DNA of 64,000 nt. Origin: Chlamydiia bacterium. GTDB taxonomy: Bacteria > Chlamydiota > Chlamydiia > Chlamydiales > 2-12-FULL-49-11. Of this stretch, positions 1,818 through 59,790 are shown in pieces. Both the position numbers and the translations under genes were made by a program. The notes under the pieces are model-generated. The model ran no database searches. It had not been told where the DNA came from and saw nothing but the letters and a program-made list of their open reading frames with translations. How positions within the stretch are numbered: position 1 is the stretch's first letter; each line of letters opens with the position of its first letter. The DNA lies in the NCBI GenBank assembly GCA_022601595.1, contig JAJACI010000002.1, forward strand, positions 12,523 to 76,522, in the 5' to 3' direction.

Positions 1818-1877
1818 TATTTGAAAAGAATGGCTCGTAACTGTTATAAAACAATTCTCTAATTGGATATATAGAAT

Positions 1878-4800
1878 ATGAAAAAAGCCCTTTTCGTTTT
1901 ATTTTTTGTAGGTTTTACCTCTATACAAGCTGTACCTTTTACGGTGACAAATGACAGCGATTTTGCCCCTGGATCATTTCGTATTCAAGCAGGAAACGCT
2001 GGTGCTGATGCATTCAATATCCTTGACTTTGATGGGGATTATACCATTGCCATTGAAGATCCAGTAATCCCATTAAACAGCGCTTTTACCATTGATTTTT
2101 CTACCCATGACATTACCTTTTCTGGAGGAACAGCAAACCCAGGTCTAAGCATAACAAATGGTGTTACACCCACTTTAACCTCTTCCGATAACACCTCTAG
2201 CCTAACCATTAATGTAAACATTGGAGAAACTCTTGCCCCTGGCGGCTTTATTATTACCGATAAGGCCAATGTTGAATTTAGCGGGGTAAATACTTTTACT
2301 GGCGGGATAACCATACAAGTGGATGAATTGATATCACAAGGAAGTGTTATCTTGAGCAACAATCAAGGTCTTGGAACTGGAAATGTGTTATTTGCTCAAG
2401 GCACCTTACATCTAAACGATACTATCACCATGGCAAATGCTATTGACCTATCGGTAGGTATAGGCGCTCGACAAATAAATGTTGCAGGTGGAGGGTCCGC
2501 TACTGTGTCAGGAAATATGATTGGAGCAAGCTCGCAAACGCTGTATAAACTTGGCAATGGAACCCTCTTTTTAACTGGGGTAAACACCTCCTCTAGCCCA
2601 ATAACTATTTCCGAAGGGACATTGGCTTATAAAGATGGAGGACTCTCTTCCTCAACAGGTGATGTACTGATTAACAATACAACCTCGCTTGATATTTCAG
2701 CTATTTCAGCCTCTGGTACTACTGTTGCAGATCTTTCAGCCGTCTCTGGAACCACTATCGTTTTAGGAGGTAAAAGCCTCACTTTTGGAACATCATCAAG
2801 TACTGAAATTGCAGCAATTGTATCAGGTAGTGGCGGATCTTTAGTCAAGATAGGAGATGGCACCGTTACCCTTTCCGGTGTGAATACGTATACCGGAGGA
2901 ACATCCCTGGATAACGGATCCCTTTCCCTAAGCAATAATGCAGCTTTAGGAACAGGGGACCTTACCATGCAAAGTGACACTACATTGCTTTTCGATGGCG
3001 TTACCAGTTTAGCTAATAATATAATATTCAATGAAGCAGGAACAAGCTCTTTGAATATTGGAGCAGGTGAAACAGCTACATTAGACGGAATTATTAGTGG
3101 AGTAGGTACTTTTGAGAAACAAAATGAAGGAACCCTACAATTAGAAAGTGCAAATACCTATAGCGGCGGAACGGCGCTTACAGATGGTACTATTATTCTC
3201 AATAATAATACCGCAATGGGATCAGGAGCATTGACCTTTACTAATGGAACCTTACAAGTTGATGGAGGGATCACTGCAGGAAATACCATTACCCTTGGCT
3301 CTGGAACCTCTCGAACAATCAGCGTTCTTACAGGAGATATAGCAACACTCACAGGAGTGATTAGCGGGCCGGGCTCCCCCCCTTTGATTAAATCAGGCGA
3401 AGGGACGCTTAACCTCTCTGCTGTAAATACGTATACAGGAGCGACCACCATTTCTCAAGGTACACTTGCCTATACTGGCGCAGGATTACCCTCGGCTACT
3501 GGTGATATGCTTATCCAAGGGACATCTACCTTTAATATTTCAGCTATTACTTCTGATCAGGCAACTGTTGGAAATCTAACTTTATCTTCAGGTGCGAGTT
3601 TAGTCTTGGGCAGTAAAAGTCTTACCTTTGGAGGAGATAGCGACACCAATCTTGAAGGGGTAATTAGTGGGAGTGGCGGCTCCTTAATCAAGACAGGAGA
3701 TTCTGTATATACCCTTTCAGGAACAAACACGTATACCGGAGGAACTACTCTGAATGGTGGTACGCTTGTTTTAGATAATAATAGTGCATTAGGAGGTGGA
3801 GGAGCCCTAGATATGAGCGATGGCACAACCTTAACTCTAATGAATGAGATCGATGCCTCTAATAATATTTCAATCACTTCTCAAGGAACAAGATCTTTCA
3901 ACGTTGACTTAGTGTCAACTGCAGTAATAGACACAGGAACCCTTTCAGGGGTTATTAGCGGGGCGGGCTCTTTAGAAAAAACAGGAGAAGGCACCCTTGT
4001 TCTCTCAGGGGAAAACACCTATAGTGGCGGAACCACCATTTCACAAGGTATCTTAGAGGTATCGGGATCCCTTTTTAACACAGGATCTGTGACGGTAAAT
4101 GGCTCCTCCTCTTTTGACATGAGTGAAGTAACATCTGCCCTTACTATTGGAAGTTTAGAAGCGGCAAGTGGGTCTACCATAGAATTAGGAACAAAGAGCT
4201 TAACTTTTGGTGGAAGTAACAATACCACCATCGCAGGAGTTATTGAAGGAGACAGCGGCTCCTCTCTTACTAAAATAGGAACAGGGTCTGTTACTCTAAG
4301 CGGCGTAAATACTTTTGATGAAACAATGACCGTTTCTGGGGGAACGCTTATTGTAAATGGCACTCTTCCCGGCTCTGTTACCATGGGGACATCTACCACG
4401 TTAAAAGGAACAGGAACGATTGGAGAAGAGGTGAGCGTTGCAAGTGGGGCCTCTATTCGGCCGGGAAATTCTATTGGTACTATCACTGTTGGAACATTAA
4501 CTTTGGATACAGGATCCACTACAAGTATAGAATTTGATGATACAAGCACCTCTTTGATAAAAGTTACCGGCGCAGCAGACATTGCCGGAACATTACATTT
4601 GATTTTTGACCAAGGAAATTATCCTCTAACTGGGAGCTATCAAATATTGACCGGCGCTCCTGTGATAGGAACGTTTAGCGCTATTACAGGCGATGTTACT
4701 GGATTTGATTTCTCATTAAGCTACTCTACAACAGATGTTCTTTTACTCTTTACCAAGGTGATCCCCACTGCAGGGCTTACAGGAAATATCCTCAAGTTTG

Positions 4801-5939
4801 CAAACTATTTAAATGCATCTGCCCCTGCATCTAATGAATATAGCGCTTTAACCGATCTTCGTGGAAGCGCGGTAGCTGTTGGAGTAAACAGCGCCTCCCC
4901 TGCTAGAAATGCCTTTAGTACCTATGTAACGCAGATGGGAGTATTCTCCCTTAGTCATATAGTGGATAATTACCTCTCTGGAAAAAGGTTTTTTAATGCT
5001 CATGATGCCCCTGGTGAGATAACAGACATTTCCCTCTCCGGCAAAGATTTGCTCGCAGCAAATAAAAACTGGGGATATCCAGAAATAGAGATGAATAAAC
5101 CTGAGCATACTCTTTGGGCGAGCGGCTTTGTAGACTTTGCACGGCAAGATAGCGAGAGTCAAAATCTTCCTTTTGATTTTATATCCAGTGGCTTTATATT
5201 GGGATTAGACTCTCAAAGTGTTTTTAAAGATGATGTGGTAGGCGCCGCTTTTGGCTATGTCAACTCCCAGGTAGATGATAATGGCAATATGGGATCCTCA
5301 AGTATTTCCTCGTTTGCAGTATCCATATATGGTGATTATTTTTGGGAGTATTTTTATTTCCAGGGGGCGCTGTGGGGAGTCTCCCACCAAATCAACAGCA
5401 ATAGAAAGATCTCCTATCCGGGTGTACAAACCAAAGCATCGAGTAGATTTAGTGGCTGGCAGGTAGCTCCTCATTTAGAATTTGGTTTTACCTTTGGATC
5501 ATCCCTATTTGAAGTGCAACCATACGCCTCCTTTGACTATGTATACAACTGGGAAGATAGCTACGAAGAAACCGGCGCTCTCAATTTAAATATGAGGGTA
5601 AAAGCTCAAGAGTCTTCGATGTTACAAACGCAAATTGGGATGAAGTTTTTTCAATCAACTTTTATATCCTCTGGCCGCTTTGGTATGAAAGAAGGTATTA
5701 GTTATATTAACCGTACTCCGTTCGAGACAGGCACCATTACAACCTCTATTTTTGGAGCTACCGATTTTGTCTCTTTAAGATCTTTTACCGAGTCACAAAA
5801 TCTTGGCGCCTTAGATATAGAAATGTTTTTCCAAGTAGGAAAAGAAAAAAATACCACCATTTCCCTTGCATATGAAGGTCAATATGGAGATCAGTATATC
5901 TCCAATGAATTAATCCTTACCCTCTCTCATATTTTTTAA
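1878..5939 (+). CDS. Autotransporter / Pmp-like outer membrane protein (1353 aa)
   Basis: Signal-peptide-like N-terminus MKKALFVLFFVGFTSIQA. Many copies of the autotransporter-associated beta-strand repeat (GTL.L.G.NTYTGGT.I..GTL). Conserved PGNSIGTITVG...IEFD segment and a beta-barrel-like C-terminus ending LSHIF. Confidence 0.9.
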   Translation: MKKALFVLFFVGFTSIQAVPFTVTNDSDFAPGSFRIQAGNAGADAFNILDFDGDYTIAIEDPVIPLNSAFTIDFSTHDITFSGGTANPGLSITNGVTPTLTSSDNTSSLTINVNIGETLAPGGFIITDKANVEFSGVNTFTGGITIQVDELISQGSVILSNNQGLGTGNVLFAQGTLHLNDTITMANAIDLSVGIGARQINVAGGGSATVSGNMIGASSQTLYKLGNGTLFLTGVNTSSSPITISEGTLAYKDGGLSSSTGDVLINNTTSLDISAISASGTTVADLSAVSGTTIVLGGKSLTFGTSSSTEIAAIVSGSGGSLVKIGDGTVTLSGVNTYTGGTSLDNGSLSLSNNAALGTGDLTMQSDTTLLFDGVTSLANNIIFNEAGTSSLNIGAGETATLDGIISGVGTFEKQNEGTLQLESANTYSGGTALTDGTIILNNNTAMGSGALTFTNGTLQVDGGITAGNTITLGSGTSRTISVLTGDIATLTGVISGPGSPPLIKSGEGTLNLSAVNTYTGATTISQGTLAYTGAGLPSATGDMLIQGTSTFNISAITSDQATVGNLTLSSGASLVLGSKSLTFGGDSDTNLEGVISGSGGSLIKTGDSVYTLSGTNTYTGGTTLNGGTLVLDNNSALGGGGALDMSDGTTLTLMNEIDASNNISITSQGTRSFNVDLVSTAVIDTGTLSGVISGAGSLEKTGEGTLVLSGENTYSGGTTISQGILEVSGSLFNTGSVTVNGSSSFDMSEVTSALTIGSLEAASGSTIELGTKSLTFGGSNNTTIAGVIEGDSGSSLTKIGTGSVTLSGVNTFDETMTVSGGTLIVNGTLPGSVTMGTSTTLKGTGTIGEEVSVASGASIRPGNSIGTITVGTLTLDTGSTTSIEFDDTSTSLIKVTGAADIAGTLHLIFDQGNYPLTGSYQILTGAPVIGTFSAITGDVTGFDFSLSYSTTDVLLLFTKVIPTAGLTGNILKFANYLNASAPASNEYSALTDLRGSAVAVGVNSASPARNAFSTYVTQMGVFSLSHIVDNYLSGKRFFNAHDAPGEITDISLSGKDLLAANKNWGYPEIEMNKPEHTLWASGFVDFARQDSESQNLPFDFISSGFILGLDSQSVFKDDVVGAAFGYVNSQVDDNGNMGSSSISSFAVSIYGDYFWEYFYFQGALWGVSHQINSNRKISYPGVQTKASSRFSGWQVAPHLEFGFTFGSSLFEVQPYASFDYVYNWEDSYEETGALNLNMRVKAQESSMLQTQIGMKFFQSTFISSGRFGMKEGISYINRTPFETGTITTSIFGATDFVSLRSFTESQNLGALDIEMFFQVGKEKNTTISLAYEGQYGDQYISNELILTLSHIF

Positions 5940-5956
5940 CCTTTGGATAGTCTCCT

Positions 5957-8900
5957 ATGAAAAAATTTCTTGTAATACTATTTTTCACCATTTTTGGACT
6001 TGTCCAAATAGAGGGTTATGAAGTGACTAGCGGAGATGATGCTGGTGCTGGCACGCTTCGTGAAGGATTAAACACAGGAAGCAGCGGCGATACCTTTACT
6101 TTTAGCGGCGATTTTTCTATTCCTATTACTTCTGCGGCTTTACCTTTTGATTATATAAATACCATTGATGTGGGAACAAATACCATTAGACTTACAACAG
6201 ATACCCCTCCTTATGGCGTGGTCTTTGGCGGCGGAGGAACGGTCACTTCTACAATAGATGGTACAGGACTACTTACCGTAGATGTTGTAGTATCAGAAAC
6301 AGGCGGCACAACTGGGTCCTTTATCAAAACAGGATCGTCGATATTTTCTCTTGATACGGCAAATACCTTTACCGGCGGCGTAGCTCTACAGGAAGGAACC
6401 CTTCTACTTACAAACAGCACAGGACTTGGTACAGGCGATCTGACTATTAGTGAAGATGCTATCTTATTAGTAACAGGAGGAATCAATGTTGCAAATAGTA
6501 TCGATCTAACCGGATCGGGCGAACGAGAAATTACTGCCTTAGCTGCTACAGATATTGGGACCTTATCAGGGATTATTAGCGGAGATGCAAATGCCTTGCT
6601 GTTAAAAACAGGAGCTGGAGAGCTTACCCTTTCTGGCGCAAATACCTTTCCAGGTGGCGTAGCCCTACAAGAAGGAACCCTTATTGTAGGCAATAATATA
6701 GCACTAGGTTCTGGTACCCTTGATTTAACAAATGACGGCACCGCCGCAACCAACTTTGAAATAAGCGATGGGATAACTGTGACAAACCCTATTACCATAG
6801 GTGGCGCCGAAGTAAAAAATATAGAAGTTGGAACGGGAGATACAGCAAACTTATCAGGAGTGATTAGCGGCGCCTCAGGCACAGCCTTGTATAAAACAGG
6901 TGACGGAACCCTTACATTAAGTGCCGCAAATACCTATTCTACCGGAACCATAATTAGCGCCGGTACATTAGCTCTTACAGGATCGCTAGATAGTACAGCA
7001 GATGTAACCGTCAATGGTTCTGCCATTTTCGATATTAGCGCAGCAGCATCTGCGCCTACTATTGGGGCGTTAGAGGCAGAGTCTGGGACGTTGCTAAAAT
7101 TAGGAGCTAAAAGCTTAACCTTTGGAACAAACGACGCTACCAAAACCATTGCAGGAGTGGTTAGCGGATCTGGAGGATCTTTGATCAAACAAGGGACCGG
7201 ATCGGTAACTTTTTCTGCCACAAATACCTTTACCGGAGGAGTAACATTAAATGCTGGAACCATTGTCCTGGATAATAATGCCGCGCTGGGAACAGGCTCT
7301 CTTACCATGGCGCCGCTCACTACACTTACTACCAATCCAGGGATCACCGCTGCTAATAAAATTGCCTTAAGCACTGCTGGTTCTAGAGATTTTACTGTTG
7401 GGGCAGGAACAACTGGGACCCTCTCTGGCATTATTAGCGGATCAGGAGGGCTTGAAAAGAAAGATTCAGGAACACTTACCCTTTCTGGCGCAAATACCTA
7501 TAGCGGCGGAACCGTTATCACTGAAGGAACCTTAGCCCTCAAAGGATCCCTTCTAAAAACAGGTGATGTAACTATCAATAACTCCTCCTCGTTAGATATT
7601 AGCGAGGTCACAGCAGCCCTTACCATCGGATCCTTAAATGCTGCAAGTGGATCTACAGTGAAATTGGGAACAAAGTCTTTGACCTTTGGAACAGATAGCG
7701 ATGCGGTAATTGCAGCAATTGTTAGTGGAGATACAGGATCTTCTTTGAACAAAAAAGGAACAGGAACCGTTACCTTTTCAGCGGTAAATACCTTTGCAAA
7801 TACATTGACCGTATCGGCAGGAACAGCGGCTATAAACGGCACTCTACCAGGCGCTGTAACGGTGAAAAGCTCTGCAGCTGTAAAAGGAACGGGAACCATC
7901 GGCGGCAAACTTACCGTTGAAAGCGGAGCCGCATTTACCCCAGGCAACTCTATTGGCACCATCACAGTAGGAAGCCTCTCTTTAGACTCCGGCTCTACAA
8001 CAAATATAGAATTTGATCCAGCAACCAGCTCGCAAATAAAAGTTACCAATTCTGCCACCCTTGCAGGAACCTTAAACTTAACAAATAATCCAGGCGATTA
8101 TCCCCTTACCGGTAGTTATTTATTCTTAACAGCAGATTCTATCAGCGGCACTTTTGATTCCATTACCGGAGGACATCAAGAATTTATTTTTTCTGTAGAT
8201 TATACCTCAACCAGCGCTACCTTACTTTATAGTAGCCCTATTGCCACCGGAGGACTTACAGGAAATATATTGACCTTTGCAAATTACTTAAATGCTTACT
8301 CTCCTGTAACAGATGAATTTGTTGCCTTATCAGAACTTTCTGGGCAAACATTATACAATGGAATCAATAGCACCTCCCCGGCTAGAAATACCTTTAACAC
8401 TTATACCTCACAGATCGCTCTATTTTCACTAAGCCAAAAGGTAAGCAACTACCTAACTGATAAAAGATTTTTCAGCTCTCATGATACCTCATTGAATATC
8501 GCAGATATTTGCTCGTCTAATAATGACCATTTGATTGCAGTAAACTCCTATTGGGATGATGCTGAATATAAAAGGGCCGAGCCTACCTACGCCTTTTGGA
8601 TCAATGGTTTTGCCGATTTTGCAGGCCAGGGAGGCGCCAATCAAAACGTTCCTTTTGATTTTATTACCGGCGGCGTGCTGGCCGGCTTAGACTGGGAAAG
8701 CTCTTATAAAGAACATATCCTAGGCATCGCTATTGGCTATGCAAACTCCCAGATTACCGATCACGCAAGGATGGGATCTTCTGAAATCTCCATGCTGGCC
8801 ACTTCCCTCTATGCAGACTTTTCCTATCACTCCTTTTATGCCCAAGCAATGTTTTGGGGCGTTTTTAATCTTATTGATAATCGCCGAATCATTTCCTACC

Positions 8901-9421
8901 CTGGGGTGAATACAAAAGCGAAAGCTGAATACTGCGGATGGCAAATCAATCCCCACATAGAACTTGGCTATAGCCACAGATCACAAATATTTGAAGCACA
9001 ATCCTATATCGCCTTTGACTACGTACAAAATGAACAAGATAGCTATAGTGAAAAAGGCGCTGGAAATCTAAATATGAGGGTGAAAAAACAAAAATCCTCC
9101 ATGCTACAAACCCAGCTGGGAATAAGATTCTACCAAGGAATCGATCGGCCCCATTACCGCTTTGGTATCAAAGAAAACATTAGCTTTATCAACCGAATAC
9201 CTTTTGATACAGGCACCCTAACTACCGCCATTTTTGGCGCTGATAACTTTGTAACCCTTCACTCTTTTACACAAACACAAACTCTTGGCGCCATTAATAT
9301 AACCCTTTTCACCCAAGTAGGAAAAGAAAAAGACACCATCATTTCCCTTGGCTACCAAGGAGAATTTGGAAACCAATATATTTCAAACAGCGCAAGCCTC
9401 ACCATCTCTACAGAATTTTAA
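5957..9421 (+). CDS. Autotransporter / Pmp-like outer membrane protein (1154 aa)
   Basis: Signal-peptide-like N-terminus MKKFLVILFFTIFGLVQIEG. Same passenger repeats. C-terminal domain closely alignable to ORF 3..1817 and ending ISTEF. Confidence 0.9.
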   Translation: MKKFLVILFFTIFGLVQIEGYEVTSGDDAGAGTLREGLNTGSSGDTFTFSGDFSIPITSAALPFDYINTIDVGTNTIRLTTDTPPYGVVFGGGGTVTSTIDGTGLLTVDVVVSETGGTTGSFIKTGSSIFSLDTANTFTGGVALQEGTLLLTNSTGLGTGDLTISEDAILLVTGGINVANSIDLTGSGEREITALAATDIGTLSGIISGDANALLLKTGAGELTLSGANTFPGGVALQEGTLIVGNNIALGSGTLDLTNDGTAATNFEISDGITVTNPITIGGAEVKNIEVGTGDTANLSGVISGASGTALYKTGDGTLTLSAANTYSTGTIISAGTLALTGSLDSTADVTVNGSAIFDISAAASAPTIGALEAESGTLLKLGAKSLTFGTNDATKTIAGVVSGSGGSLIKQGTGSVTFSATNTFTGGVTLNAGTIVLDNNAALGTGSLTMAPLTTLTTNPGITAANKIALSTAGSRDFTVGAGTTGTLSGIISGSGGLEKKDSGTLTLSGANTYSGGTVITEGTLALKGSLLKTGDVTINNSSSLDISEVTAALTIGSLNAASGSTVKLGTKSLTFGTDSDAVIAAIVSGDTGSSLNKKGTGTVTFSAVNTFANTLTVSAGTAAINGTLPGAVTVKSSAAVKGTGTIGGKLTVESGAAFTPGNSIGTITVGSLSLDSGSTTNIEFDPATSSQIKVTNSATLAGTLNLTNNPGDYPLTGSYLFLTADSISGTFDSITGGHQEFIFSVDYTSTSATLLYSSPIATGGLTGNILTFANYLNAYSPVTDEFVALSELSGQTLYNGINSTSPARNTFNTYTSQIALFSLSQKVSNYLTDKRFFSSHDTSLNIADICSSNNDHLIAVNSYWDDAEYKRAEPTYAFWINGFADFAGQGGANQNVPFDFITGGVLAGLDWESSYKEHILGIAIGYANSQITDHARMGSSEISMLATSLYADFSYHSFYAQAMFWGVFNLIDNRRIISYPGVNTKAKAEYCGWQINPHIELGYSHRSQIFEAQSYIAFDYVQNEQDSYSEKGAGNLNMRVKKQKSSMLQTQLGIRFYQGIDRPHYRFGIKENISFINRIPFDTGTLTTAIFGADNFVTLHSFTQTQTLGAINITLFTQVGKEKDTIISLGYQGEFGNQYISNSASLTISTEF

Positions 9422-9489
9422 ATGCAGCGCGCCTTGGGATATAGTCCTTACATCCTAACCAACTCAAATACTTTTTTTATCGACTTTAT

Positions 9490-9519
9490 AGTCAAAACCC
9501 GTTTAAAGTGCTAATGACT
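9490..9519. repeat. Miniature/degenerate family-B-like inverted repeat
   Basis: agtcaaaacccgtttaaagtgctaatgact resembles the two family B termini (agtcat.accgttt ... aatgact) joined with almost no interior. Confidence 0.3.
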
Positions 9520-9724
9520 ATCACAAGGAATGCTATGAAAAATCCTCTGAAAATTTTACTATGCTGCCTTACTCTCTTTGCTAATGCTTTTTGCGAAGAT
9601 AAACATCTTGCTCAATAAACAAAAGCTGATAGCAATAAAATGCTTCAAAGCATATAAAAATACCTTACATTTAACCCTATTTCAAAGCACATTAACCCAG
9701 AGCTCACTTACGCCGACTGTTTAA

Positions 9725-9884
9725 GGAGACTCTGATAAACGAGCAGTTTTATAATCTCCCAGATTTCTGATACATCCTATTTTTCGTGGCGCCCCATCCC
9801 TACAGGGATGCCGCTTACTCCAAAATCGGATTTATTTCAAAAAATCTGAAGAAATTCTAAAAAGTGCAGTTTATCAGACTCTCC
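9725..9884 (-). mobile_element. Family A 160-bp foldback MITE-like element, copy A1
   Basis: Termini ggagactctgataaac ... gtttatcagactctcc, internal near-palindrome catccctacagggatg, flanked by ttaa/ttaa. Near-identical to seven other 160-bp copies in the window. Confidence 0.85.
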
Positions 9885-9888
9885 TTAA

Positions 9889-9904
9889 GGAGACTCTGAT
9901 AAAG
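9889..9904 (+). repeat. Solo family A terminal repeat
   Basis: ggagactctgataaag lies directly after A1, separated by ttaa. Only the terminal 16 nt are present. Confidence 0.5.
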
Positions 9905-9936
9905 AATTCTTGTAGGTAATACTATAATAATTTTAT

Positions 9937-10326
9937 TTATAGATCGTTTGCTGCGCCCTCTTCTGTGAACACTTTTTTTTCCATAGCCTTTACCTGCTCT
10001 TCCGTTAGCTCTGTTTCTATAAGCTCAACAGGTGCTCCACATTCCTCGATGAATACTACTCTCCATCCTTCCACCGGAGTAAAGGGGCCATAAAGAATCT
10101 TCTTCCCCACAAGCTCTTCATCCATATCTTCAACGATAAACGCTACATGAGCAACCGTCTTCACAAGCTCTGGAAAGACGCTCCCCTCATGGTAACGACA
10201 CCACTGAATATTAAACTCAGAGATATCGTGCGGCGTTAAAGACACCTTCCACTCATCTACATAATATTCACCCTCTTTTGGGGTAGCTGTTGGTATCCCT
10301 AAATGATGATATACTCTTTTTCCCAT
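9937..10326 (-). CDS. VOC/glyoxalase-fold family protein (129 aa)
   Basis: ATG-to-stop ORF. The pattern HVAFIVEDMDEEL...GWRVVFIEECGAPVELIE resembles the beta-alpha-beta-beta-beta module of glyoxalase/bleomycin-resistance/dioxygenase family proteins. Assignment is by motif resemblance only. Confidence 0.6.
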   Translation of the reverse strand: MGKRVYHHLGIPTATPKEGEYYVDEWKVSLTPHDISEFNIQWCRYHEGSVFPELVKTVAHVAFIVEDMDEELVGKKILYGPFTPVEGWRVVFIEECGAPVELIETELTEEQVKAMEKKVFTEEGAANDL

Positions 10327-10382
10327 AATAAATAACCCTTTCCCAAACTTGAGATTTTAGTGTCTGCCGAACGTATCTTATT

Positions 10383-10441
10383 TACAGTTTTTTTTGCAAC
10401 CCATTTTGTATATCGGATGAGGCGTGTGCGTGTAGGCATTC
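10383..10441 (+). repeat. Truncated family C element (left arm plus apical motif only)
   Basis: tatcggatgaggcgtgtgcgtgtaggcattc matches the stem end and apex of C3 (tcggatccgacgtgtgcgtgtaggcactc), but no complementary right arm follows. Confidence 0.35.
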
Positions 10442-10460
10442 AAAAATAAGACTCTGAATA

Positions 10461-10733
10461 GATTTTAGAGAATTTTTTCAGCGCTTTTTTTCTATAGGAG
10501 ACTCTGATAAACTACACTTTTTAGAATTTCTTCAGATTTTTTGAAATAAATCCGATTTTGGAGTAAGCGGCATCCCTGTAGGGATGGGGCGTAGCGAAAA
10601 ATGGAATTTATAAGAAATCTGGAAAATTATAAAACTGTCCGTTTTTCAGAGTCTCCTATATAGGATCTGACGTGTACATACAGGTACTCTAGGATCCTAT
10701 ATAGAAAAAAAGCGCCCAAAAAAACTCTAAAAT
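10461..10733 (+). repeat. Family C long hairpin C1, left arm interrupted by element A2
   Basis: Left arm gattttagagaattttttcagcgctttttttctata[A2]tataggatc pairs with right arm gatcctatatagaaaaaaagcgcccaaaaaaactctaaaa. Apex at 10668-10692 is tgacgtgtacatacaggtactctag. Confidence 0.6.
10497..10656 (+). mobile_element. Family A 160-bp foldback MITE-like element, copy A2
   Basis: ggagactctgataaactacac...ccgtttttcagagtctcc, flanked by tata/tata. Sits inside the left arm of hairpin C1. Confidence 0.9.
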
Positions 10734-10752
10734 GGAGGTCCACCTCCATTTT
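10729..10752. repeat. Small palindrome carrying an 11-nt copy of the tmRNA 3' flank/end
   Basis: aaaatggagg-tcca-cctccatttt. The left half, aaaatggaggt, equals 10991-11001 at the real tmRNA 3' end. Confidence 0.5.
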
Positions 10753-10757
10753 TTGAA

Positions 10758-10827
10758 GGTGTTTTTTCTTATTTCGATTTGATAGTGTACAGGTAGTACT
10801 CGGAAAATCGAAATAAGGAAAAAAAGC
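10758..10827 (+). repeat. Family C hairpin C2
   Basis: Arms ggtgttttttcttatttcgattt / aaaatcgaaataaggaaaaaaagc. Apex at 10781-10803 is gatagtgtacaggtagtactcgg. Confidence 0.6.
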
Positions 10828-10832
10828 AAAAA

Positions 10833-10852
10833 AAAATGGAGGTGGGGAGATT
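10833..10852 (-). repeat. 20-nt direct duplicate of the tmRNA 3' end (att-like relic)
   Basis: aaaatggaggtggggagatt is identical to 10991-11010, which spans the 3' terminus of ssrA. Confidence 0.8.
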
Positions 10853-10884
10853 AAAGTGTCTATTTCTCAATGGCACTTGTAGAA

Positions 10885-10994
10885 TTTTGATGAGTTATTT
10901 TTTAGAAGATCTTTTCTAATTCGGATCCGACGTGTGCGTGTAGGCACTCTAGGATCCGAATTAGTGAAAGATCTTCCAAAAATAACCATCAAAA
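10885..10994 (+). repeat. Family C long hairpin C3, abutting the tmRNA 3' end
   Basis: Arms ttttgatgagttattttttagaagatcttttctaattcggatcc / ggatccgaattagtgaaagatcttccaaaaataaccatcaaaa. Apex at 10929-10951 is gacgtgtgcgtgtaggcactcta. Ends 1 nt before ssrA. Confidence 0.7.
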
Positions 10995-11410
10995 TGGAGG
11001 TGGGGAGATTCGAACTCCCGTGCTAGATAACTCCACAACTATATCTACATACTTAGTCACCCGTTAATAACCTTATGAAATGACGACAGATGACAAGCAC
11101 ATGTAACATAAGGCTTTTTCTAAATCTTGAATAGTTGGGCCGAAAAAGAATTCCCATCTATTCATACCGTGATATATTACGATGAGAATAAGACCTCTCG
11201 GTCCGAATCTTAAACCATCGACGAAACTACCTTTCGGTAATTAAGCTGCAACTGAAGCGGCATTTTCAGCAGTAAACTGCTCAAAATTACCAACTATAAC
11301 ATTACTGTTTTTTGGTGCATTTATTTTTTTTCCGGTTTTTTTAGGAGGCCAACCAGAACCCTCCGTATGCAATAATTACTTATACCATCCAGGCGATACC
11401 ACTCACCCCC
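10995..11410 (-). ncRNA. ssrA: tmRNA (transfer-messenger RNA)
   Basis: 5' GGGGGUG pairs with 3' CACCUCC, giving a 7-bp acceptor stem with a G3:U wobble and discriminator A; CCA is not encoded. T-arm is GGGAG-UUCGAAU-CUCCC. Internal tag frame 11318->11241 reads GCA CCA AAA ... GUU GCA GCU UAA = APKNSNVIVGNFEQFTAENAASVAA. The segment before the resume codon (GGUUGGCCUCCUAAAAAAACCGG) resembles the E. coli ssrA PK1 region. Confidence 0.9.
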
Positions 11411-11674
11411 TTATTATAAGGATACTCCGAAAAATTTCCCTAAAAAAATGGTGTCCTAAATGACTTTTGACACCCTAAACCTCTCTCTTTCTATTTTAAG
11501 ACAAACCCGCTGCAAGCAGCAAATCTGGCGCTACGCAAATTAAAATAGTAAGATTGAAAGCTCAGGCTATCAAAAATCCTCTAGCACACCATAAGTATAA
11601 CTATTTTGATACATAATATCAAAATAAAAAATTACCCGGATAATCGTTAGATCACTCGGATAATAGAAAATACA

Positions 11675-11959
11675 TTATCTTCTGCCGCCGCGGTCACTTC
11701 TTTCCACTCTTGGTCTTGCTTCGTTAACAGTTAATGAACGACCATCAACTTCTTTACCATTCATTGCATCGATTGCAGCTTGTGCTTCATCAGTACTACT
11801 CATTTCTACAAATGCGAATCCTTTTGAACGTCCTGTATCTCTATCTTCGATAATTTGTGCAGATACTACTGTTCCAAATTCTTCAAATAGTTCTTTTAAG
11901 CTGTCGTTGTCTAAACTGTAAGGAATGTTTCCTACATATAATTTTTTTTCTTGTGCCAC
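11675..11959 (-). CDS. RRM-type (RNP-1/RNP-2) RNA-binding protein, 94 aa
   Basis: RNP-2 LYVGNI and RNP-1 KGFAFVEM, with a short Arg/Gly tail. Typical small bacterial RRM protein. Confidence 0.85.
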   Translation of the reverse strand: MAQEKKLYVGNIPYSLDNDSLKELFEEFGTVVSAQIIEDRDTGRSKGFAFVEMSSTDEAQAAIDAMNGKEVDGRSLTVNEARPRVERSDRGGRR

Positions 11960-12240
11960 GTCGGGTCTCCTAATAAAAAGCGTCCCTTAAATAACGGATT
12001 ATCTAAGCTCTGCTATAACTTTCAAATTTACTTTACACATCTAAAAAACAAAAGATGGTCTTCTATTTTTCAAACGATAGAGGAAGTATAGACTATGGAT
12101 GTATTTAATGATAGCAAGAAGATTTTCCCTTTTTTTCTTAAAAAATATTTTTTAATGTGTGATTTGCATAACTATAGTATCTTTTAATGTAGCTCTGTTG
12201 TATCCTATATGTGAAATATAAATTACACAAGGCAACTTTC

Positions 12241-14058
12241 ATGGGTTTTTCCAAATTTGAACTAGACGAAAAAATTATTAAGGCAATTACAGACGCAGGT
12301 TATACAAAACCTTCGAAAATCCAAGAACAAGCCATCCCTGTTGCTTTAGAAGGAAAAGATGTCAGAGCATCTGCTCAAACAGGTACTGGAAAAACAGCAG
12401 CATTTCTAATACCAGCGCTTCAAAAAATTATTGACTCTCCTAAACAAGGGGGAAAAGGGCCTAAACTTCTGGTTCTTACTCCAACAAGAGAGCTTGCTCA
12501 ACAAATTACTGTACAAGCGGAAAAATATAGTAAACATTTGAGAAACATTAGATCTGTTTGTGTAGTGGGCGGAGTTCCTTACCATAAGCAACAAGCTAAA
12601 CTAAACCGTCCTTATGACATATTGATTGCAACACCTGGTCGTCTTATAGATTACATGAACAGAGGTAAAGTTAATTTTTCAAACCTGGAGATGATTGTTC
12701 TTGATGAAGCAGACAGAATGCTTGATATGGGATTTTCAGAGCCTGTGGAAGAAATTATTTCAGCAACACCGCAAAACAGACAAACATTATTGTTTTCTGC
12801 GACTCTAAAAGGAGAGGTGCTAAAACTTTCCCAAAGATTTATGAAAGATCCAGTAGAGATTGTTATTCACTCAGATCATGAAAAACATGAAAACATTGAT
12901 CAAAAACTTCTTTACGTAGACAACCTAGGCCATAAAAATGATTTGCTTGATCATATCCTTAATGCAGAAGACTTGAAATCAGCTATTATTTTCACTGCAA
13001 CTAAAAGACATTGTGATGAGCTGGTTGATGAGCTGGAAGATAAAGATTTTGCAGCGGGGGCGCTACATGGAGATATGAACCAAAGACAAAGATCTCGTAC
13101 AATTAAAATGCTTAAAGAGGGAAGGTTTAATATTCTTGTTGCAACAGATGTAGCAGCTCGTGGTATTGATATCTCTGATATTTCTCATGTAATTAACTTT
13201 GACCTTCCAAGAGATACTGAAGATTACGTGCATAGAATTGGTAGAACAGGGCGTGCTGGTAAAACAGGTATTGCCATCTCTTTTGCTGGATCAAAAGACA
13301 TTCACATGGTTCCAAGAATTGAAAAATACACAGGACAAGCAATTAATGTGATAGAAATTGCAGGTCTCGAACCTCGCTGTAAACCAAAAGCTACCGGTGA
13401 GAAAAAATCAAAGTCTAGAAAAAGAGGCGGCGGATCTCGTTCAGGTAATAGATCAGGCGGCGGAGACAGAAGATCATCAGGCGGAAGAGGCGGATACGGT
13501 GGAGGCGAAAGAAGATCAGCTCCTAGGAGTGACTCTCGCGACAGGTCTGACAGAGGAAACTCTTCCGGGGGAGAAAGAAGATCATCTCCTAGAGGAGAAT
13601 CTCGTGGTGGTTTCGGTGGAGAAAGAAGGTCTGCACCAAGAAGTGACTCTCGCGACAGGTCTGACAGAGGAAACTCTTATGGCGGCGGTGAAAGACGGTC
13701 ATCTCCAAGAAGTGACTCTCGCGACAGGTCTGACAGAGGAAACTCTTTCGGCGGTGACAGAAGATCATCAGCACCTAGGGGCGGGTCTGAGAGAAGATCC
13801 TCAGGTGGATACGGCGGAAGAAGCGAATCTTTCGGCGGAGCTAGAAAGACCACTAAGAGTGGCAATTCTAAAGACAGGTCTGAAAAAAGAAGTTTCGGAG
13901 AAAAAAGCACTTTCGGCAACCGTTCTAAGTCAGATAGCCGTAAAGGTGGATTTTCCTCAGAGAAAAGATCATCAGGTGGCGACAGAAGATCATCAGGCGG
14001 CAGAAAGCCTTCCTCTTTTAAAGGTGGCGGCGGAAAGTCTCATAGAGGAGCTAGATAA
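12241..14058 (+). CDS. DEAD-box ATP-dependent RNA helicase with long Arg/Ser/Gly-rich C-terminal tail
   Basis: Q motif GYTKPSKIQ, AQTGTGKT, PTRELA, DEAD, SAT, HRIGRTGRAG. The ORF opens at GTG 12211, but ATG 12241 (MGFSKFELD) is the likely start. Confidence 0.9.
   Translation: MGFSKFELDEKIIKAITDAGYTKPSKIQEQAIPVALEGKDVRASAQTGTGKTAAFLIPALQKIIDSPKQGGKGPKLLVLTPTRELAQQITVQAEKYSKHLRNIRSVCVVGGVPYHKQQAKLNRPYDILIATPGRLIDYMNRGKVNFSNLEMIVLDEADRMLDMGFSEPVEEIISATPQNRQTLLFSATLKGEVLKLSQRFMKDPVEIVIHSDHEKHENIDQKLLYVDNLGHKNDLLDHILNAEDLKSAIIFTATKRHCDELVDELEDKDFAAGALHGDMNQRQRSRTIKMLKEGRFNILVATDVAARGIDISDISHVINFDLPRDTEDYVHRIGRTGRAGKTGIAISFAGSKDIHMVPRIEKYTGQAINVIEIAGLEPRCKPKATGEKKSKSRKRGGGSRSGNRSGGGDRRSSGGRGGYGGGERRSAPRSDSRDRSDRGNSSGGERRSSPRGESRGGFGGERRSAPRSDSRDRSDRGNSYGGGERRSSPRSDSRDRSDRGNSFGGDRRSSAPRGGSERRSSGGYGGRSESFGGARKTTKSGNSKDRSEKRSFGEKSTFGNRSKSDSRKGGFSSEKRSSGGDRRSSGGRKPSSFKGGGGKSHRGAR
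13528..13746 (+). repeat. Intragenic repeats in the helicase tail (36-nt identical core x3)
   Basis: agtgactctcgcgacaggtctgacagaggaaactct occurs at 13528-13563, 13642-13677 and 13711-13746, encoding SDSRDRSDRGNS each time. Confidence 0.8.
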
Positions 14059-14079
14059 CCTAATAAATGAGGGGTGCAT

Positions 14080-15438
14080 ATGCATATCTTAAATACTATA
14101 TCCGAACATTTAACGGTATCGATTCAGGCCGCTAAAGACGCCTGGGTTGAAATCCCTCCTTTTACGAATATAATAAATTCTTTTTTGTATGTCAGCACTT
14201 ATAGAAAACCTGTAGACCTTTCTGCAGTTACTATTGAAAAGCTCAATGCAATTACTGGCGAGGAAGTATGGAACAGCCAAGCTACAGCTAAAGTGTTAAA
14301 ACTTTTTGAAAACGAATCTACAAAAGAAGTCTTTTCAGGAAATCCAACTAGTAAATTGGATAACATAAATACCTCTTTAAAAAAGTTAGGATATAAGATT
14401 CTTGCTGAAAAAAATATTGATGGCACTCCAACTCCATATTACGGTGTAGTACAAACACCGGATAGTTCATTAATTCTAAAGTATGCCCCTAACCATCATT
14501 CTCCTCTCAGACAACCACCTGAAATATCTTTTCCCTCAGATAATTTCTTTGCATTCGCTTTTGGTGACCCCAATGAATCTCTGCTTAGGATTAAAATGGC
14601 ATCTCTAATTAAAGTTGCTGCAACCGAAAATAAACTAAATATAACTGTTCCAAAAAAAATAGCGATAAAAATCCCAAGAAACAGCCGATCTTCTCGAGCT
14701 CAATATGTAATAGCTGCAGAAGCTATTGACCTTCTTTCTATTGATGAAATGAAAATTGCTATCACTGAAGCACCCAAGAAAGAGCAGGAAGAACTTGCAC
14801 TTAGAGTGCATAGATTTATAGAGTTAACAGGGTTTGTAGATGTAAACATTGGAAATAATATCTTATTTAGAAGAGGAGATGAAAGACCTTTATCAACTAG
14901 AGAATTAGTTGTTATTGACACTGAACCAAGAGGCTCTTTAGAAACAAAAGACAAAAAATCTCTATTCCCCTCCTCTTGCTTAGAAAAATGTAGAGTGATT
15001 GGAGGTTTACAGGCATATGCTTTTAGCATACAGAATTTCGGGAAGGAAACCCACTTAACAAAGGCTCTCCTAACACTCGCTAGACGCCAAACCAGACAGA
15101 GAACTTGGATGAGCACTGTTGGAATTTCCAGTTGCATTTTTTTCCCTCTGATATTAACTGGAGCACTGAAAGCAAACAAATTTTCTGACAAACGGAAAAG
15201 AGTGCTCCTAACTGTCATTTCTTATTTATTTATATTGTATATTGCACCAATAGTCAAAGCTCTTCATATTGCTATAACTGCTTATAATATGACTCACGCA
15301 AAAAAAAGATTGATAACTTGCTTTGAAAATACAACACCTAATGATAGCAGAACCTTAATTCTACAAAAAAAATATATTAAAGCAAAAGCTGCTTATCACC
15401 ACGCCATCAATAATTCTTTTTTAAGGTTGGGCGCCTAA
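14080..15438 (+). CDS. Hypothetical protein with kinase-like catalytic-loop signature and C-terminal transmembrane hairpin
   Basis: SD-like gagggg lies 6 nt before ATG 14080 (ORF opens at GTG 14074). GFVDVNIGNNILF...VVIDTE fits D-x4-N plus an I-D-x-E/G kinase-fold pattern. Two hydrophobic helices lie near the C-terminus (VGISSCIFFPLILTGAL / VLLTVISYLFILYIAPIV). Confidence 0.6.
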   Translation: MHILNTISEHLTVSIQAAKDAWVEIPPFTNIINSFLYVSTYRKPVDLSAVTIEKLNAITGEEVWNSQATAKVLKLFENESTKEVFSGNPTSKLDNINTSLKKLGYKILAEKNIDGTPTPYYGVVQTPDSSLILKYAPNHHSPLRQPPEISFPSDNFFAFAFGDPNESLLRIKMASLIKVAATENKLNITVPKKIAIKIPRNSRSSRAQYVIAAEAIDLLSIDEMKIAITEAPKKEQEELALRVHRFIELTGFVDVNIGNNILFRRGDERPLSTRELVVIDTEPRGSLETKDKKSLFPSSCLEKCRVIGGLQAYAFSIQNFGKETHLTKALLTLARRQTRQRTWMSTVGISSCIFFPLILTGALKANKFSDKRKRVLLTVISYLFILYIAPIVKALHIAITAYNMTHAKKRLITCFENTTPNDSRTLILQKKYIKAKAAYHHAINNSFLRLGA

Positions 15439-15446
15439 AAAGATTC

Positions 15447-15474
15447 TAAAAACTGTCCGTTTATCAGAGTCTCC
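15447..15474 (+). repeat. Family A right-end fragment
   Basis: tctaaaaactgtccgtttatcagagtctcc matches the right terminus of family A and lies back-to-back with A3. Confidence 0.5.
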
Positions 15475-15478
15475 CTAA

Positions 15479-15638
15479 GGAGACTCTGATAAACGAGCAG
15501 TTTTATAATCTCCCAGATTTCTGATACATCCTATTTTTCGTGGCGCCCCATCCCTACAGGGATGCCGCTTACTCCAAAATCGGATTTATTTCAAAAAATC
15601 TGAAAAAATTCTAAAAGGTGTAGTTTATCAGAGTCTCC
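15479..15638 (-). mobile_element. Family A 160-bp foldback MITE-like element, copy A3
   Basis: Full-length copy flanked by ctaa/ttaa. Its right terminus supplies the last three codons and the TGA stop of ORF 15628..16251. Confidence 0.9.
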
Positions 15639-16251
15639 TTAAGATTAAAGCGCAGAGTTTGTCTTTAGCCATTTGATTATAATTTTTTCCGATGTGCATC
15701 ACGCCATCGGAAAATTTCATTTTAAGAGTCCCATCAGCCATGGAGTACTCATCAAATACATCAAAATATAATATCTTTGATTTTTTAAGTTTGGCATTTA
15801 GCCTTTTTGTATATTTCACTCGAGCCTCAGCAGGACCCACAGATGGATACCCATCCACCGTTAATTCTCGTACAGGTGGTGTTACTCCAAAAATAACAGG
15901 AATAACCTTATACTTTTTAGCAATTTTCTTTATTTGCAAGAGGTACCCTTCTACCAGTTTTGACAAAACCTCATCAAGTTCTCTTTTTTCCTTGGTCACC
16001 TGTTTATCGATATGGCAGCGCACATCAATTTCTCCAAAACAAAAAACCAAATAGTCTCCCTCTTTCATATCAGCAAAATATTTGTCATCACACCCTCGTA
16101 TTCCAAAAGAATACATCGTTTGAGAACCAACAAAATGAGTGGTCAGAGGAACATTTATAATCCCCTCATCGCTCAAATAAAATATAGAGTCCCCTTCACT
16201 GGTAAAGGTAAAATCGCAATGGCTATCACCAATGGTATGTACTTTTGTCAT
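15628..16251 (-). CDS. SGNH/GDSL-like hydrolase family protein (207 aa)
   Basis: N-terminal block I-like motif HTIGDSHC and a C-terminal FSDGVMHIG (Asp/His block-V-like). The C-terminal RRL-stop is encoded by repeat A3. Confidence 0.5.
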   Translation of the reverse strand: MTKVHTIGDSHCDFTFTSEGDSIFYLSDEGIINVPLTTHFVGSQTMYSFGIRGCDDKYFADMKEGDYLVFCFGEIDVRCHIDKQVTKEKRELDEVLSKLVEGYLLQIKKIAKKYKVIPVIFGVTPPVRELTVDGYPSVGPAEARVKYTKRLNAKLKKSKILYFDVFDEYSMADGTLKMKFSDGVMHIGKNYNQMAKDKLCALILRRL

Positions 16252-16317
16252 AACCCTATCCTAATCTACCTGTAATAAATAAGGAAATAAAAACCTATCT
16301 CCTGTATAATCCCTACC

Positions 16318-17031
16318 ATGAAACATTATGTAATTGGAAAAAATTCTGTACAAGAGCTTGTCAAGCATGCTCCAGAGCGCGTGATTGCGATCATCACCTC
16401 TCATACCGATGATGATCCTGTGATTAAAAAGCTCCTTGAGCTGAAAAAGCCACTACATATGAAAAATCTCAAAAAATTAGATGAGCTGACCAATTCCACT
16501 TCTCATCAAGGCTATGTTCTTGAGGTAAAAAAAAGAGAGTCTTTGCATGTTGAAGAGCTTCTTGAAAGATCCAAAGATAAAAAAAGATGTTTGGTGGTAA
16601 TGCTTGACTCTATTTTTGATCCACATAATGTAGGAGCGATCCTTAGAGCTTGTGAATGTTTTGGCGTAGACGGTGTTATCTATTCTAAAAATAAAGGGTG
16701 TAAAATAACGCCAACGGTGACAAAAATTTCTATGGGAGCCTCAGAGATTGTTCCTATTACAGAGGTTTCTAACCTTGCAACCACCATAGAAAAGTTTCAA
16801 AAAGAGGGCTTTTGGGCAGCCTCTGCTGAAATAAGCAGTAAGGCCACCTCTATATACGACTTTGACTACCCAGAAAAAACCCTACTTATCTTAGGATCAG
16901 AAGGCAAAGGGGTACAAAATATTCTTTCTAAAAAATCAGACTTTCATGTGTATATCCCCATGAGCGGCCAGATTGACTCTTTAAATGTCTCTCAAGCCGC
17001 AGCCGTATTCATCATGAATTTTAAAAAGTAG
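16318..17031 (+). CDS. rlmB: TrmH/SpoU-family RNA 2'-O-methyltransferase (RlmB-like)
   Basis: SpoU motifs LDSIFDPHNVGAILRACECFG, LILGSEGKGV and IPMSGQIDSLNVSQAAAV, with an N-terminal substrate-binding-like domain. Confidence 0.8.
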   Translation: MKHYVIGKNSVQELVKHAPERVIAIITSHTDDDPVIKKLLELKKPLHMKNLKKLDELTNSTSHQGYVLEVKKRESLHVEELLERSKDKKRCLVVMLDSIFDPHNVGAILRACECFGVDGVIYSKNKGCKITPTVTKISMGASEIVPITEVSNLATTIEKFQKEGFWAASAEISSKATSIYDFDYPEKTLLILGSEGKGVQNILSKKSDFHVYIPMSGQIDSLNVSQAAAVFIMNFKK

Positions 17032-17085
17032 TTATTAATTTTTATCAAATGTGCTACTTTACTCACAACTTTATATAGGATTAAC

Positions 17086-18489: not shown

Positions 18490-18506
18490 TATTTGCGTTT
18501 TTTTAA

Positions 18507-18666
18507 GGAGACTCTGATAAACTGCACTTTTTAGAATTTCTTCAGATTTTTTGAAAGGTATTCTATTTTGGAGTAAGCGGCATCCCTGTAGGGATGGGGC
18601 GTAACGAAAAATAGGATTTATAAGAAATCTGGGAGATTATAAAACTGCTCGTTTTTCAGAGTCTCC
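18507..18666 (+). mobile_element. Family A 160-bp element, copy A4 (tandem with A5)
   Basis: Full-length copy with left flank ttaa, separated from A5 by only taa. Confidence 0.9.
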
Positions 18667-18669
18667 TAA

Positions 18670-18829
18670 GGAGACTCTGATAAACTGCACTTTTTAGAAT
18701 TTCTTCAGATTTTTTGAAATAAATCCGATTTTGGAGTAAGCGGCATCCCTGTAGGGATGGGGCGTAACGAAAAATAGGATTTATAAGAAATCTAAGAGAT
18801 TATAAAACTGTCCGTTTTTCAGAGTCTCC
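18670..18829 (+). mobile_element. Family A 160-bp element, copy A5
   Basis: Full-length copy in direct tandem with A4; right flank taaa. Confidence 0.9.
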
Positions 18830-18832
18830 TAA

Positions 18833-18953
18833 AGGGAAGATAAGGTGTTTTTTAATCAGAAGATTTTTTATTTCCCTGGTCGACAGTGTATAGTTAATAC
18901 TCAGAGACCAGGGAAGTGAAAAATATACGATTAAAAAACACCTTAGGTTCCCT
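18833..18953 (+). repeat. Family C long hairpin C4, immediately after the phoH2 stop codon
   Basis: Arms agggaagataaggtgttttttaatcagaagattttttatttccctggtc / gaccagggaagtgaaaaatatacgattaaaaaacaccttaggttccct. Apex at 18882-18905 is gacagtgtatagttaatactcaga. Confidence 0.7.
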
Positions 18954-59684: not shown

Positions 59685-59730
59685 CTCTCCGATGAAGATA
59701 AATACGTTAAAAGACTTTTTGTGCAGGAAA

Positions 59731-59790
59731 GTTTTTATTTTTTCTGTCGATAGCGTACGTGTGGTACTCGGAGACAGAAAAAAGGAAAAA
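59731..59790 (+). repeat. Family C hairpin C6 (short arms)
   Basis: ttttttctgtc-gatagcgtacgtgtggtactcgga-gacagaaaaaa, with a partially paired extension. Confidence 0.5.

Follow-up and report, generated by a model that had tools for sequence, protein, structure and literature searches.

A duplicated tmRNA 3' end in a sponge-associated chlamydia, a probable scar of site-specific integration

The DNA analyzed here, called the window throughout, is a stretch of 64,000 nucleotides (nt) from a Chlamydiia bacterium, and our subject is the region at and behind the 3' end of its transfer-messenger RNA (tmRNA) gene, ssrA, where the last bases of the gene are found a second time. We think it probable, with some reserve, that this region is a decayed integration hotspot, that is, the scar of a site-specific integration at the T-loop of the tmRNA whose insert and integrase have since been lost. 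It is most likely an ordinary kind of event in an unusually shrunken form. The evidence consists of an exact repeat whose gene-derived part is found only at this locus in the genome, a repeat boundary that lies in the T-loop, two lineages of hairpin behind the two copies, and, at the same gene in related species, a site filled by an integrase-bearing element as well as several remnants. We infer that an integrase produced the window's own duplication and that a larger element was then deleted.

When DNA inserts site-specifically into a gene of this type, the gene end is rebuilt from the incoming DNA, and the former end is moved away from the gene (PMC4383910). The window contains two distinct units in tandem, each made of a tmRNA end and a trailer hairpin, that are joined at a perfect 20-nt repeat. 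Site-specific insertion leaves exactly such a pattern.

The tmRNA end, its copies and the trailer hairpins

The window's genome (G000) was compared with eight other species of its genus and with 22 genomes of its family. The features that matter most are listed below in the order in which they are met on the tmRNA strand.

10995-11410, minus strand: tmRNA (ssrA) gene, identified by ARAGORN and by Rfam (RF00023, 139.9 bits)
10995-11010, minus strand: O1, last 16 nt of the tmRNA, from the end of the T-loop to the discriminator base, seen in the sequence
10885-10994, minus strand: C3, 110-nt trailer hairpin directly behind the tmRNA (fold of -54.7 kcal/mol, z of -12)
10853-10884, minus strand: unique 32-nt spacer, without a homologue in the 22 family genomes
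10833-10852, minus strand: O2, putative displaced tmRNA 3' end (16 nt at 10837-10852) plus TTTT, an exact repeat
10753-10832, minus strand: C2, trailer hairpin behind O2 (inverted repeat; fold of -40.5 kcal/mol, z of -9.8)
10740-10752, plus strand: inverted copy of the tmRNA end, CCACCTCCATTTT on the plus strand, an inverted repeat that pairs with O2
10729-10739, minus strand: O3, 11-nt copy (ACCTCCA plus TTTT on the tmRNA strand), from repeat and fold analysis
10462-10733, minus strand: C1, trailer hairpin interrupted by a miniature inverted-repeat transposable element (MITE), A2 (inverted repeats; fold that joins the flanks)
10390-10441, minus strand: C0, half hairpin of apex and one arm (direct repeat, 75% over 52 nt; apex variant as in C3)

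Read on the tmRNA strand, the order is thus O1, TTTT, C3, the 32-nt spacer, O2, TTTT, C2, the inverted copy (which reads AAAATGGAGGTGG in this direction), O3, and C1, split by A2. Beyond C1 lie C0, an open reading frame (ORF) of 129 codons, MITE A1, a 27-codon stub, and autotransporter genes.

ARAGORN and Rfam agree that the window has only one tmRNA gene. CCA is not encoded, and the 3' end of the gene is at 10995. The 5' end, GGGGGTG, pairs with CACCTCC, which is followed by the discriminator A and then by TTTT. On the gene strand, the last 16 nt read AATCTCCCCACCTCCA and comprise AAT of the T-loop, CTCCC of the T-stem, CACCTCC of the acceptor, and the discriminator A; the first three bases are the final bases of the T-loop. 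The TTTT behind O1 (10991-10994) is flanking sequence outside the gene. The duplication described in the first-pass annotation is exact: the 20-mer AAAATGGAGGTGGGGAGATT is present at both 10833-10852 and 10991-11010, with identity over 16 nt of gene and 4 nt of flank. The 16-mers start 158 nt apart on the same strand, and the 138 bp between the two 20-mers consist of C3 and the spacer and contain no ORF. Only 0.02 chance matches to the 16-mer are expected in the window, and a search for further copies, suggested when the repeat was first described, found exactly two in the whole genome of 1,277,784 bp (62 contigs). Six assemblies from different samples are 100% identical over 2.2 to 2.7 kb, with both 16-mers 158 nt apart. 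The repeat is therefore not an assembly artifact, and the duplicated structure is real and fixed in the sampled population.

A conserved functional RNA at the duplication had also been raised as something to check. In a permissive Rfam search, no other known RNA overlapped the duplication or contained the 16-mer, and no family reached half its threshold. The sub-threshold matches to microRNA precursors were set aside as typical of any long hairpin. A metagenome scan with the 16-mer gave, among the matches listed, only unrelated tmRNA genes and chance matches, none of them from the genus. Comparison of the 158-bp unit with the 22 family genomes gave matches to the hairpin part and the 20-mer only, and the spacer was found in none of these genomes.

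The status of O3 is ambiguous. The 11-mer AAAATGGAGGT has six copies in the genome versus 0.9 expected, and four of these six are located within 280 bp at the tmRNA locus, three direct and one inverted. O3 abuts C1 as the tmRNA end abuts C3, and it may be an older displaced end. Together with 10740-10752, O3 also forms a palindrome with a 10-bp stem, and 10729-10752 scores on the tmRNA strand as a terminator-like hairpin with a T run, so that O3 may instead be the second strand of such a hairpin on the far arm of C2. The small palindrome noted earlier is thus real, with its inverted half being the far arm of C2, and O3 is not countable as an independent attachment (att) site.

Each of the three tmRNA-end copies is followed by TTTT and then by a trailer hairpin, as the first-pass annotation had seen from the plus strand. 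C1, C2, and C3 all carry the apex of one family, here called C-type, and all fold strongly. The -40.5 kcal/mol fold comprises O2, C2, and the inverted copy, such that the tmRNA-end copy and its inverse form the base of the stem. Removing A2 and one TATA from C1 restores a hairpin of -55.3 kcal/mol that begins right after ACCTCCA. The likeness between C3 and C2 is only 56%. C0 and C3 have in common the apex variant GTGCC..GCACAC. In C0, C3, and the hairpin of a related contig (L176, Logan run SRR29340332), the derived apex GTGCCTACACGCACAC replaces GTAC..GTACAC, making these three closer kin to each other than to the other hairpins of the locus.

Across the family of hairpins, the apex GAGTRY..RYRCAC..TC is conserved and the arms are different at every locus. 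A pattern search of the genome identified 19 C-type copies with complementary arms. In 14 of the 19 the apex follows an ORF of the same strand at a distance of 40 to 51 nt from its end; one copy stands directly behind a tRNA gene. C-type hairpins are general trailers of fixed orientation at gene 3' ends and are not specific to tmRNA. Furthermore, the far arm often bears an inverted copy of the last bases of the gene, as in ATTGTAG / CTACAAT behind an ORF on contig C7 and also at lysS. Among tmRNA trailers, that of G001 has an inverted copy of the 16-mer with 2 mismatches, and that of G006a has AAAATGAAGGTGG. Since the far arm of these trailers carries an inverted gene end, 10740-10752 belongs to C2 and is not itself an att site.

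Arms of C-type hairpins can be up to 55 nt long and extend into the final codons of the upstream ORF, stop codon included; long-arm examples lie at G000 contigs C7:12080-12250, C12:71850-72560 (window ~59330-60040), C17:7131-7255, and C30:7370-7497. Correction and extension of quasi-palindromes by template switching, reportedly described by Ripley in 1982 and by Dutra and Lovett in 2006, could account for the lasting complementarity of the arms and for an inverted gene end in the far arm. Such a process would cover the inverted copy at 10740-10752 and not the direct 16-mer.

The ssrA site in relatives and similar duplications at tRNA genes

Within the genus, a C-type hairpin stands directly behind the tmRNA in G001, G003, G006, G007, and G008, and a plain terminator takes this place in G002 and G005. 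The hairpins that occupy the position belong to three different lineages, two of which are found in the window. O1 with C3 aligns with the tmRNA end and hairpin of G001 (82% over 136 nt), and C3 is 70 to 75% identical to the hairpin of L176, which is the closest relative found (84% identity in the 129-aa ORF). O2 with C2 and the inverted copy aligns instead with the tmRNA end and first hairpin of G006a (82% over 114 nt), and the left limit of this homology coincides with the left edge of the 16-mer. For C1, it is the outer right end that has a counterpart in G006a, namely the second hairpin there. The C3 lineage is thus a native-looking trailer in L176 and G001, and the C2 lineage is the trailer in G006a, where the tmRNA is joined directly to the C2-type hairpin and the site is empty.

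A related genome with an integrase-bearing island bounded by the repeat, which the first-pass annotation had proposed to look for, is G005. Behind its tmRNA are a plain terminator and TTACGCA repeats, followed by a 361-aa tyrosine integrase (PF00589, 6e-30), a DUF927 protein, a CHC2 zinc-finger protein, and then, at +8452, the 23-nt exact repeat GAGTTCGAATCTCCCCACCTCCA, which includes the window's 16-mer. Behind this repeat come TTTT and the hairpin that is found directly behind the tmRNA in G003, G007, and G008. The site is therefore filled in G005 and empty for that element in the other three. A second segment of G005, about 9 kb long, carries terminase-like and helicase/methylase genes and has at its end CTCTCCACCTCCA and once more this hairpin, both of them within a 433-bp direct repeat of 97% identity (tmRNA end, hairpin, and 310 nt). 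The whole element (L035, G005:C11:1000-20999, at about 1730-19540) measures 8.4 kb to the first repeat and 17.8 kb to the second, also encodes a 1205-aa DUF4379/helicase/methyltransferase protein and a gp3-like small terminase, and may be phage satellite-like.

Remnants are present at ssrA in other relatives as well. The bases that precede the last repeat of G005, CCCATTGAAAAGTTCTGAATGCGT, are also found in front of displaced tmRNA ends, twice in G014 and further in G016 and L176. In L176, where the displaced end lies at 73-103, the end motif AAAAGTTCTGAATGCGT precedes CTCTCCACCTCCA, TTTT, and a C3-lineage hairpin, placed some 800 nt upstream of the 129-aa ORF; the contig, which ends in a MITE, does not include the element itself. 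At ssrA, G014 has remnants of 752 and ~980 nt, and G016 has integrase-less islets of 2955 nt (EamA, isochorismatase, and DUF6088) and ~1140 nt (PhyH). The integrase family of the G005 element occurs in 12 of the 22 family genomes and adjoins tRNA-Met in G003 and G016, and the TTACGCA arm repeats occur in G005, G014, G015, and G016.

Several further observations concern these elements. An end motif of about 30 nt, ATTTTCTCC(C/A)AT(TG/C)AAAAGTTCTGAATGCGT (L176 at 60-103, L035, L040 in G014, and L042 in G016), stands immediately in front of displaced tmRNA ends and is conserved in at least three genera of the family; presumably it serves one widespread family of elements as the arm to which the integrase binds. 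An island in G004 with a 92%-identical integrase is not beside the tmRNA on its contig and was rejected as a second filled site. The second tmRNA of G006 (L036, G006:C7:1059-1442; tag AEAKVIVLAPRAEVVLAA) was likewise discarded, being an unrelated gene; it opens a contig on which small phage-like ORFs lie, and is perhaps phage-borne or a binning contaminant. In at least ten related genomes, the contig ends 0.1 to 4 kb downstream of the tmRNA 3' end, which fits repeated or variable DNA at the site across the order.

Duplications of the same kind are seen at other genes of the window's genome. All 30 tRNA and tmRNA genes were scanned for second copies of their last 14 nt, yielding three cases besides the tmRNA. 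At tRNA-Ser (G000:C8:22340-22740), 16 nt of gene and 21 nt of flank are repeated 286 nt downstream, with a MITE inside the interval. At tRNA-Lys (G000:C40:1840-2041), about 20 nt of gene and the terminator are repeated 121 nt downstream; there is a unique insert of 59 nt here, and a C-type hairpin is absent. At tRNA-Tyr (G000:C34:4952-5035), 16 nt and 2 nt of flank are repeated on another contig (G000:C22, ~2860), in an apparent ORF. All four identity blocks start 16 to 21 nt from the gene end, which is the T-loop, and in this they are unlike duplications with random boundaries. The T-loop, a standard crossover site for tyrosine integrases that target tRNA and tmRNA genes, is one of three crossover subsites of islands in tRNA-type genes (tDNA), along with the anticodon loop and the junction of T and acceptor stems (PMC4383910). 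The copies at tRNA-Ser, tRNA-Lys, and tRNA-Tyr look like further decayed att sites, although the genome lacks an integrase of the phage type.

Origin of the duplication

A site-specific integration could have produced the window as follows. A tyrosine integrase like that of the relatives would have joined the attachment site of an incoming element (attP) to that of the tmRNA gene (attB). In the attP, a trailer hairpin of its own would have stood behind a stretch of 16 nt or more that was identical to the tmRNA end. O2 would then be an attR-type scar, left by DNA with its own tmRNA end that recombined inside the T-loop. The incoming DNA would now provide the working 3' end and trailer (O1 and C3), and the old end and old trailer (O2 and C2) would have been pushed downstream. 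The body of the insert may later have been deleted or may never have been large, leaving C3 and the 32-nt spacer, and the integrase would since have been lost from the genome. C1, preceded by ACCTCCA-TTTT, is perhaps a still older displaced end. The hairpins would be ordinary trailers in this scheme and not the cause of the duplication.

Several observations weigh against such an origin. As stated in the first-pass annotation, the region behind ssrA contains no integrase. Of PF00589 proteins the genome has a single Xer-like one, plus a weak fragment, and tblastn with the relatives' integrase gave only a 27% match to the Xer-like protein and none at E <= 1e-20. The 138-bp interval is far below island size and contains neither acquired genes nor recognizable element sequence, its 32-nt spacer having no homologue in the family, and deletion of a larger body has to be assumed. 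The TTACGCA arm repeats of the G005/G014 element are absent from 10853-10994. The spacer shares only CCATTGA with the end motif (C)ATTGAAAAGTTCTGAATGCGT, and the local score of 8 is equalled by 7% of shuffles and by 7% of genomic 34-mers; its similarity to the conserved end motif (p ~0.07) and to L176 (p ~0.06) is not significant. A pattern search with TTGARAA..TCYCCACCTCCA in 151 genomes of the order found G000, G005, and G014 only, and was given no weight as the pattern had been designed from them. More than one order of events is conceivable for C3, C2, and C1, as the C3 lineage looks native in L176 and G001 and the C2 lineage is the trailer in G006a. Finally, tandem duplication of hairpins occurs without an att site in G006a (a 215-nt unit of two hairpins), in G007 (a half hairpin), on contig C11 (three to four hairpins), and behind lysS (a duplicated hairpin). 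The hotspot proposed in the first-pass annotation is borne out by the filled site of G005, the remnants in relatives, and the unique 16-mer, which lies in no other known RNA; for the window's own insert it is a probable reading.

The tandem arrays just described speak for a local duplication in which unequal recombination or replication slippage among stacked hairpins copied the gene end with a hairpin, without an integrase, and the hairpins then diverged. We consider this rather unlikely, since the hairpins are only 56% alike and yet the non-functional 20-mer is identical at 20/20 positions. In addition, the orthologues of the two units belong to two different species, the repeat has its left boundary in the T-loop like the three tRNA duplications of the genome, and the other tandem hairpin arrays lack direct copies of a gene end. 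A role at the RNA level, in which the trailer would pair with the 3' strand of the tmRNA or form alternative terminators, with O2 and O3 as functional parts, draws on the inverted tmRNA end carried by the far arm of the trailer in G001, G006a, and C2, as well as on the terminator-like hairpin with a T run at 10729-10752. However, G001 and G006a have the inverted copy alone and no direct second copy, G002 and G005 manage with a plain terminator directly behind the tmRNA, and no Rfam family reaches even half its threshold here, so that such a role appears unlikely.

It had also been suggested that the hairpins themselves target the site. If C-type hairpins were mobile and duplicated the gene end on landing, a hairpin behind every tmRNA-end copy would be explained, as would the three lineages that occupy the position behind the tmRNA in the genus. 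This suggestion is not supported and seems to us very unlikely: the 14 of 19 apexes behind an ORF end and the one behind a tRNA are not accompanied by direct duplications of the gene end, C2 and C1 are positional orthologues of hairpins in G006a, the tRNA-Lys duplication has no C-type hairpin, and the arms differ everywhere, leaving an apex of about 25 nt as the only shared sequence. An assembly artifact, with two strain variants of the tmRNA flank joined in tandem, might be suspected in a 62-contig metagenome bin, particularly as many of the relatives' tmRNA contigs break just downstream of the gene. The identity of six assemblies from different samples over both copies makes an artifact extremely improbable, and the k-mers commonly used in the last round of assembly are longer than a 20-nt repeat.

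A bolder reading treats the unit of tmRNA-end copy and trailer hairpin as itself the recombining module, with a folded boundary site. At its stem base, the tmRNA end would be paired with its inverted copy, and cassettes without an integrase would be added and removed through this site behind the tmRNA, the locus being an array stripped to O1-C3, O2-C2, O3-C1, and C0. Such a site would be comparable to the attC site of integrons and to the hairpin attP of CTX phage. This reading is a long shot; if true, it would also explain why near-identical trailers stand behind displaced ends in G005, G016, and tRNA-Lys.

Integration at the T-loop followed by decay, which we prefer, would have implications beyond this locus. 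The findings suggest that the trailer hairpin behind the tmRNA is exchanged by such insertions, which, if true, would account for three unrelated trailer types in one genus. Integrative elements would have used tmRNA and tRNA genes even in an obligate intracellular sponge symbiont with a 1.3-Mb genome, where deletion would then have worn them down to bare att scars. The paper describing sponge-associated chlamydiae mentions no tmRNA, integrase, or genomic island (PMC9666466). For annotation, a second tRNA or tmRNA end could be taken to mark an old insertion if the copy begins in the T-loop, even when no other traces are left.

Neighboring features and comparison with known systems

The remaining features of the region lie within C1 and downstream of C0.

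10497-10656, no strand assigned: A2, family A MITE within one arm of C1, between two copies of TATA
9937-10326, minus strand: 129-aa ORF, conserved neighbor downstream of the tmRNA, with homologues in relatives
9724-9885, no strand assigned: A1, second family A MITE, in opposite orientation to A2 and with a further terminal repeat at 9887-9903
9535-9618, plus strand: 27-codon ORF stub, MKNPLKILLCCLTLFANAFCEDKHLAQ, a putative gene remnant seen in the sequence

Family A MITEs have the termini GGAGACTCTGA and a 4-bp target duplication, and more than 45 copies at 90 to 98% identity are found in the genome. The 129-aa ORF is 80% identical to its counterpart in G006a, 69% in G001, and 84% in L176, and as it lies downstream of the tmRNA in all three, it is a native neighbor. 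The vicinal oxygen chelate (VOC) fold first assigned to it was not retained: the ORF has no Pfam match, and its best sequence match in PDB, a glyoxalase-like protein, has an E value of 1.2. Two further homologues (P0004 and P0006) were set aside because their loci are non-syntenic. Between the 129-aa ORF and the autotransporter, L176 (1394-4464) carries HAD-hydrolase and glycoside-hydrolase-1 genes and a 252-aa ORF, and at the place of this HAD/GH1 interval the window (9422-9936) has only MITE A1 and the 27-codon stub, indicating a loss of about 3 kb of DNA in the window's genome.

Another contig, L175 (Logan SRR15145666), follows the window to MITE A1 (9866-10521 compared) and then continues with a different 846-aa gene, the cause being either rearrangement at this MITE or chimeric assembly. 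An RRM-domain gene (window 11675-11959) lies upstream of the tmRNA here and in G002, G003, G005, and G007 and downstream of it in G001 (L033) and G006a (L037). Thus, the neighborhood of the tmRNA has been rearranged within the genus.

That islands insert into tmRNA genes is well known, as are tandem arrays and integrase-less remnants, and the tmRNA gene is the most enriched target among islands in tRNA and tmRNA genes (PMC4383910). The window resembles the tDNA islands collected by Islander, which are integrated by tyrosine integrases, in having an intact gene and a displaced direct 3' fragment on the same replicon, with an identity block that runs from the T-loop to the gene end. The crossover subsite agrees with those used by Islander, identity beginning with the last 3 nt of the T-loop, and both empty and filled sites exist among relatives (G006a empty; G005 filled; G003, G007, and G008 empty). 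Islander islands differ in having an integrase and cargo, and the window's 138 bp fails the integrase and length filters. Another close comparison is the ssrA element of G005, which uses the same gene, has a T-loop-to-end repeat containing the same 16-mer, and displaces the native trailer behind its distal repeat; its genes, its TTACGCA repeats, and a significant match to its end motif are absent from the window's genome.

Other known systems share individual aspects with the region. Cis-mobilizable elements (CIMEs) are integrase-less elements bounded by att sites that arise by deletion from integrative and conjugative elements (ICEs), as in the ICESt1/ICESt3 family of Streptococcus thermophilus. 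In CIMEs, as would be the case here, the att sites outlive the recombination module, whereas CIMEs are kilobases long and mobilizable in cis and almost nothing is left here. Sublocation classes of integration in tRNA and tmRNA genes are said to have been defined by Williams in 2002, and ssrA-specific genomic islands were reportedly described in Dehalococcoides by McMurdie et al. in 2011. The Dehalococcoides islands employ a serine recombinase and carry large cargo, unlike the window, but resemble it in that direct repeats of the ssrA 3' end are stacked behind the gene. What is new here is the setting in a reduced, sponge-associated chlamydia, the extreme degree of decay, and the interplay of insertion with trailer hairpins.

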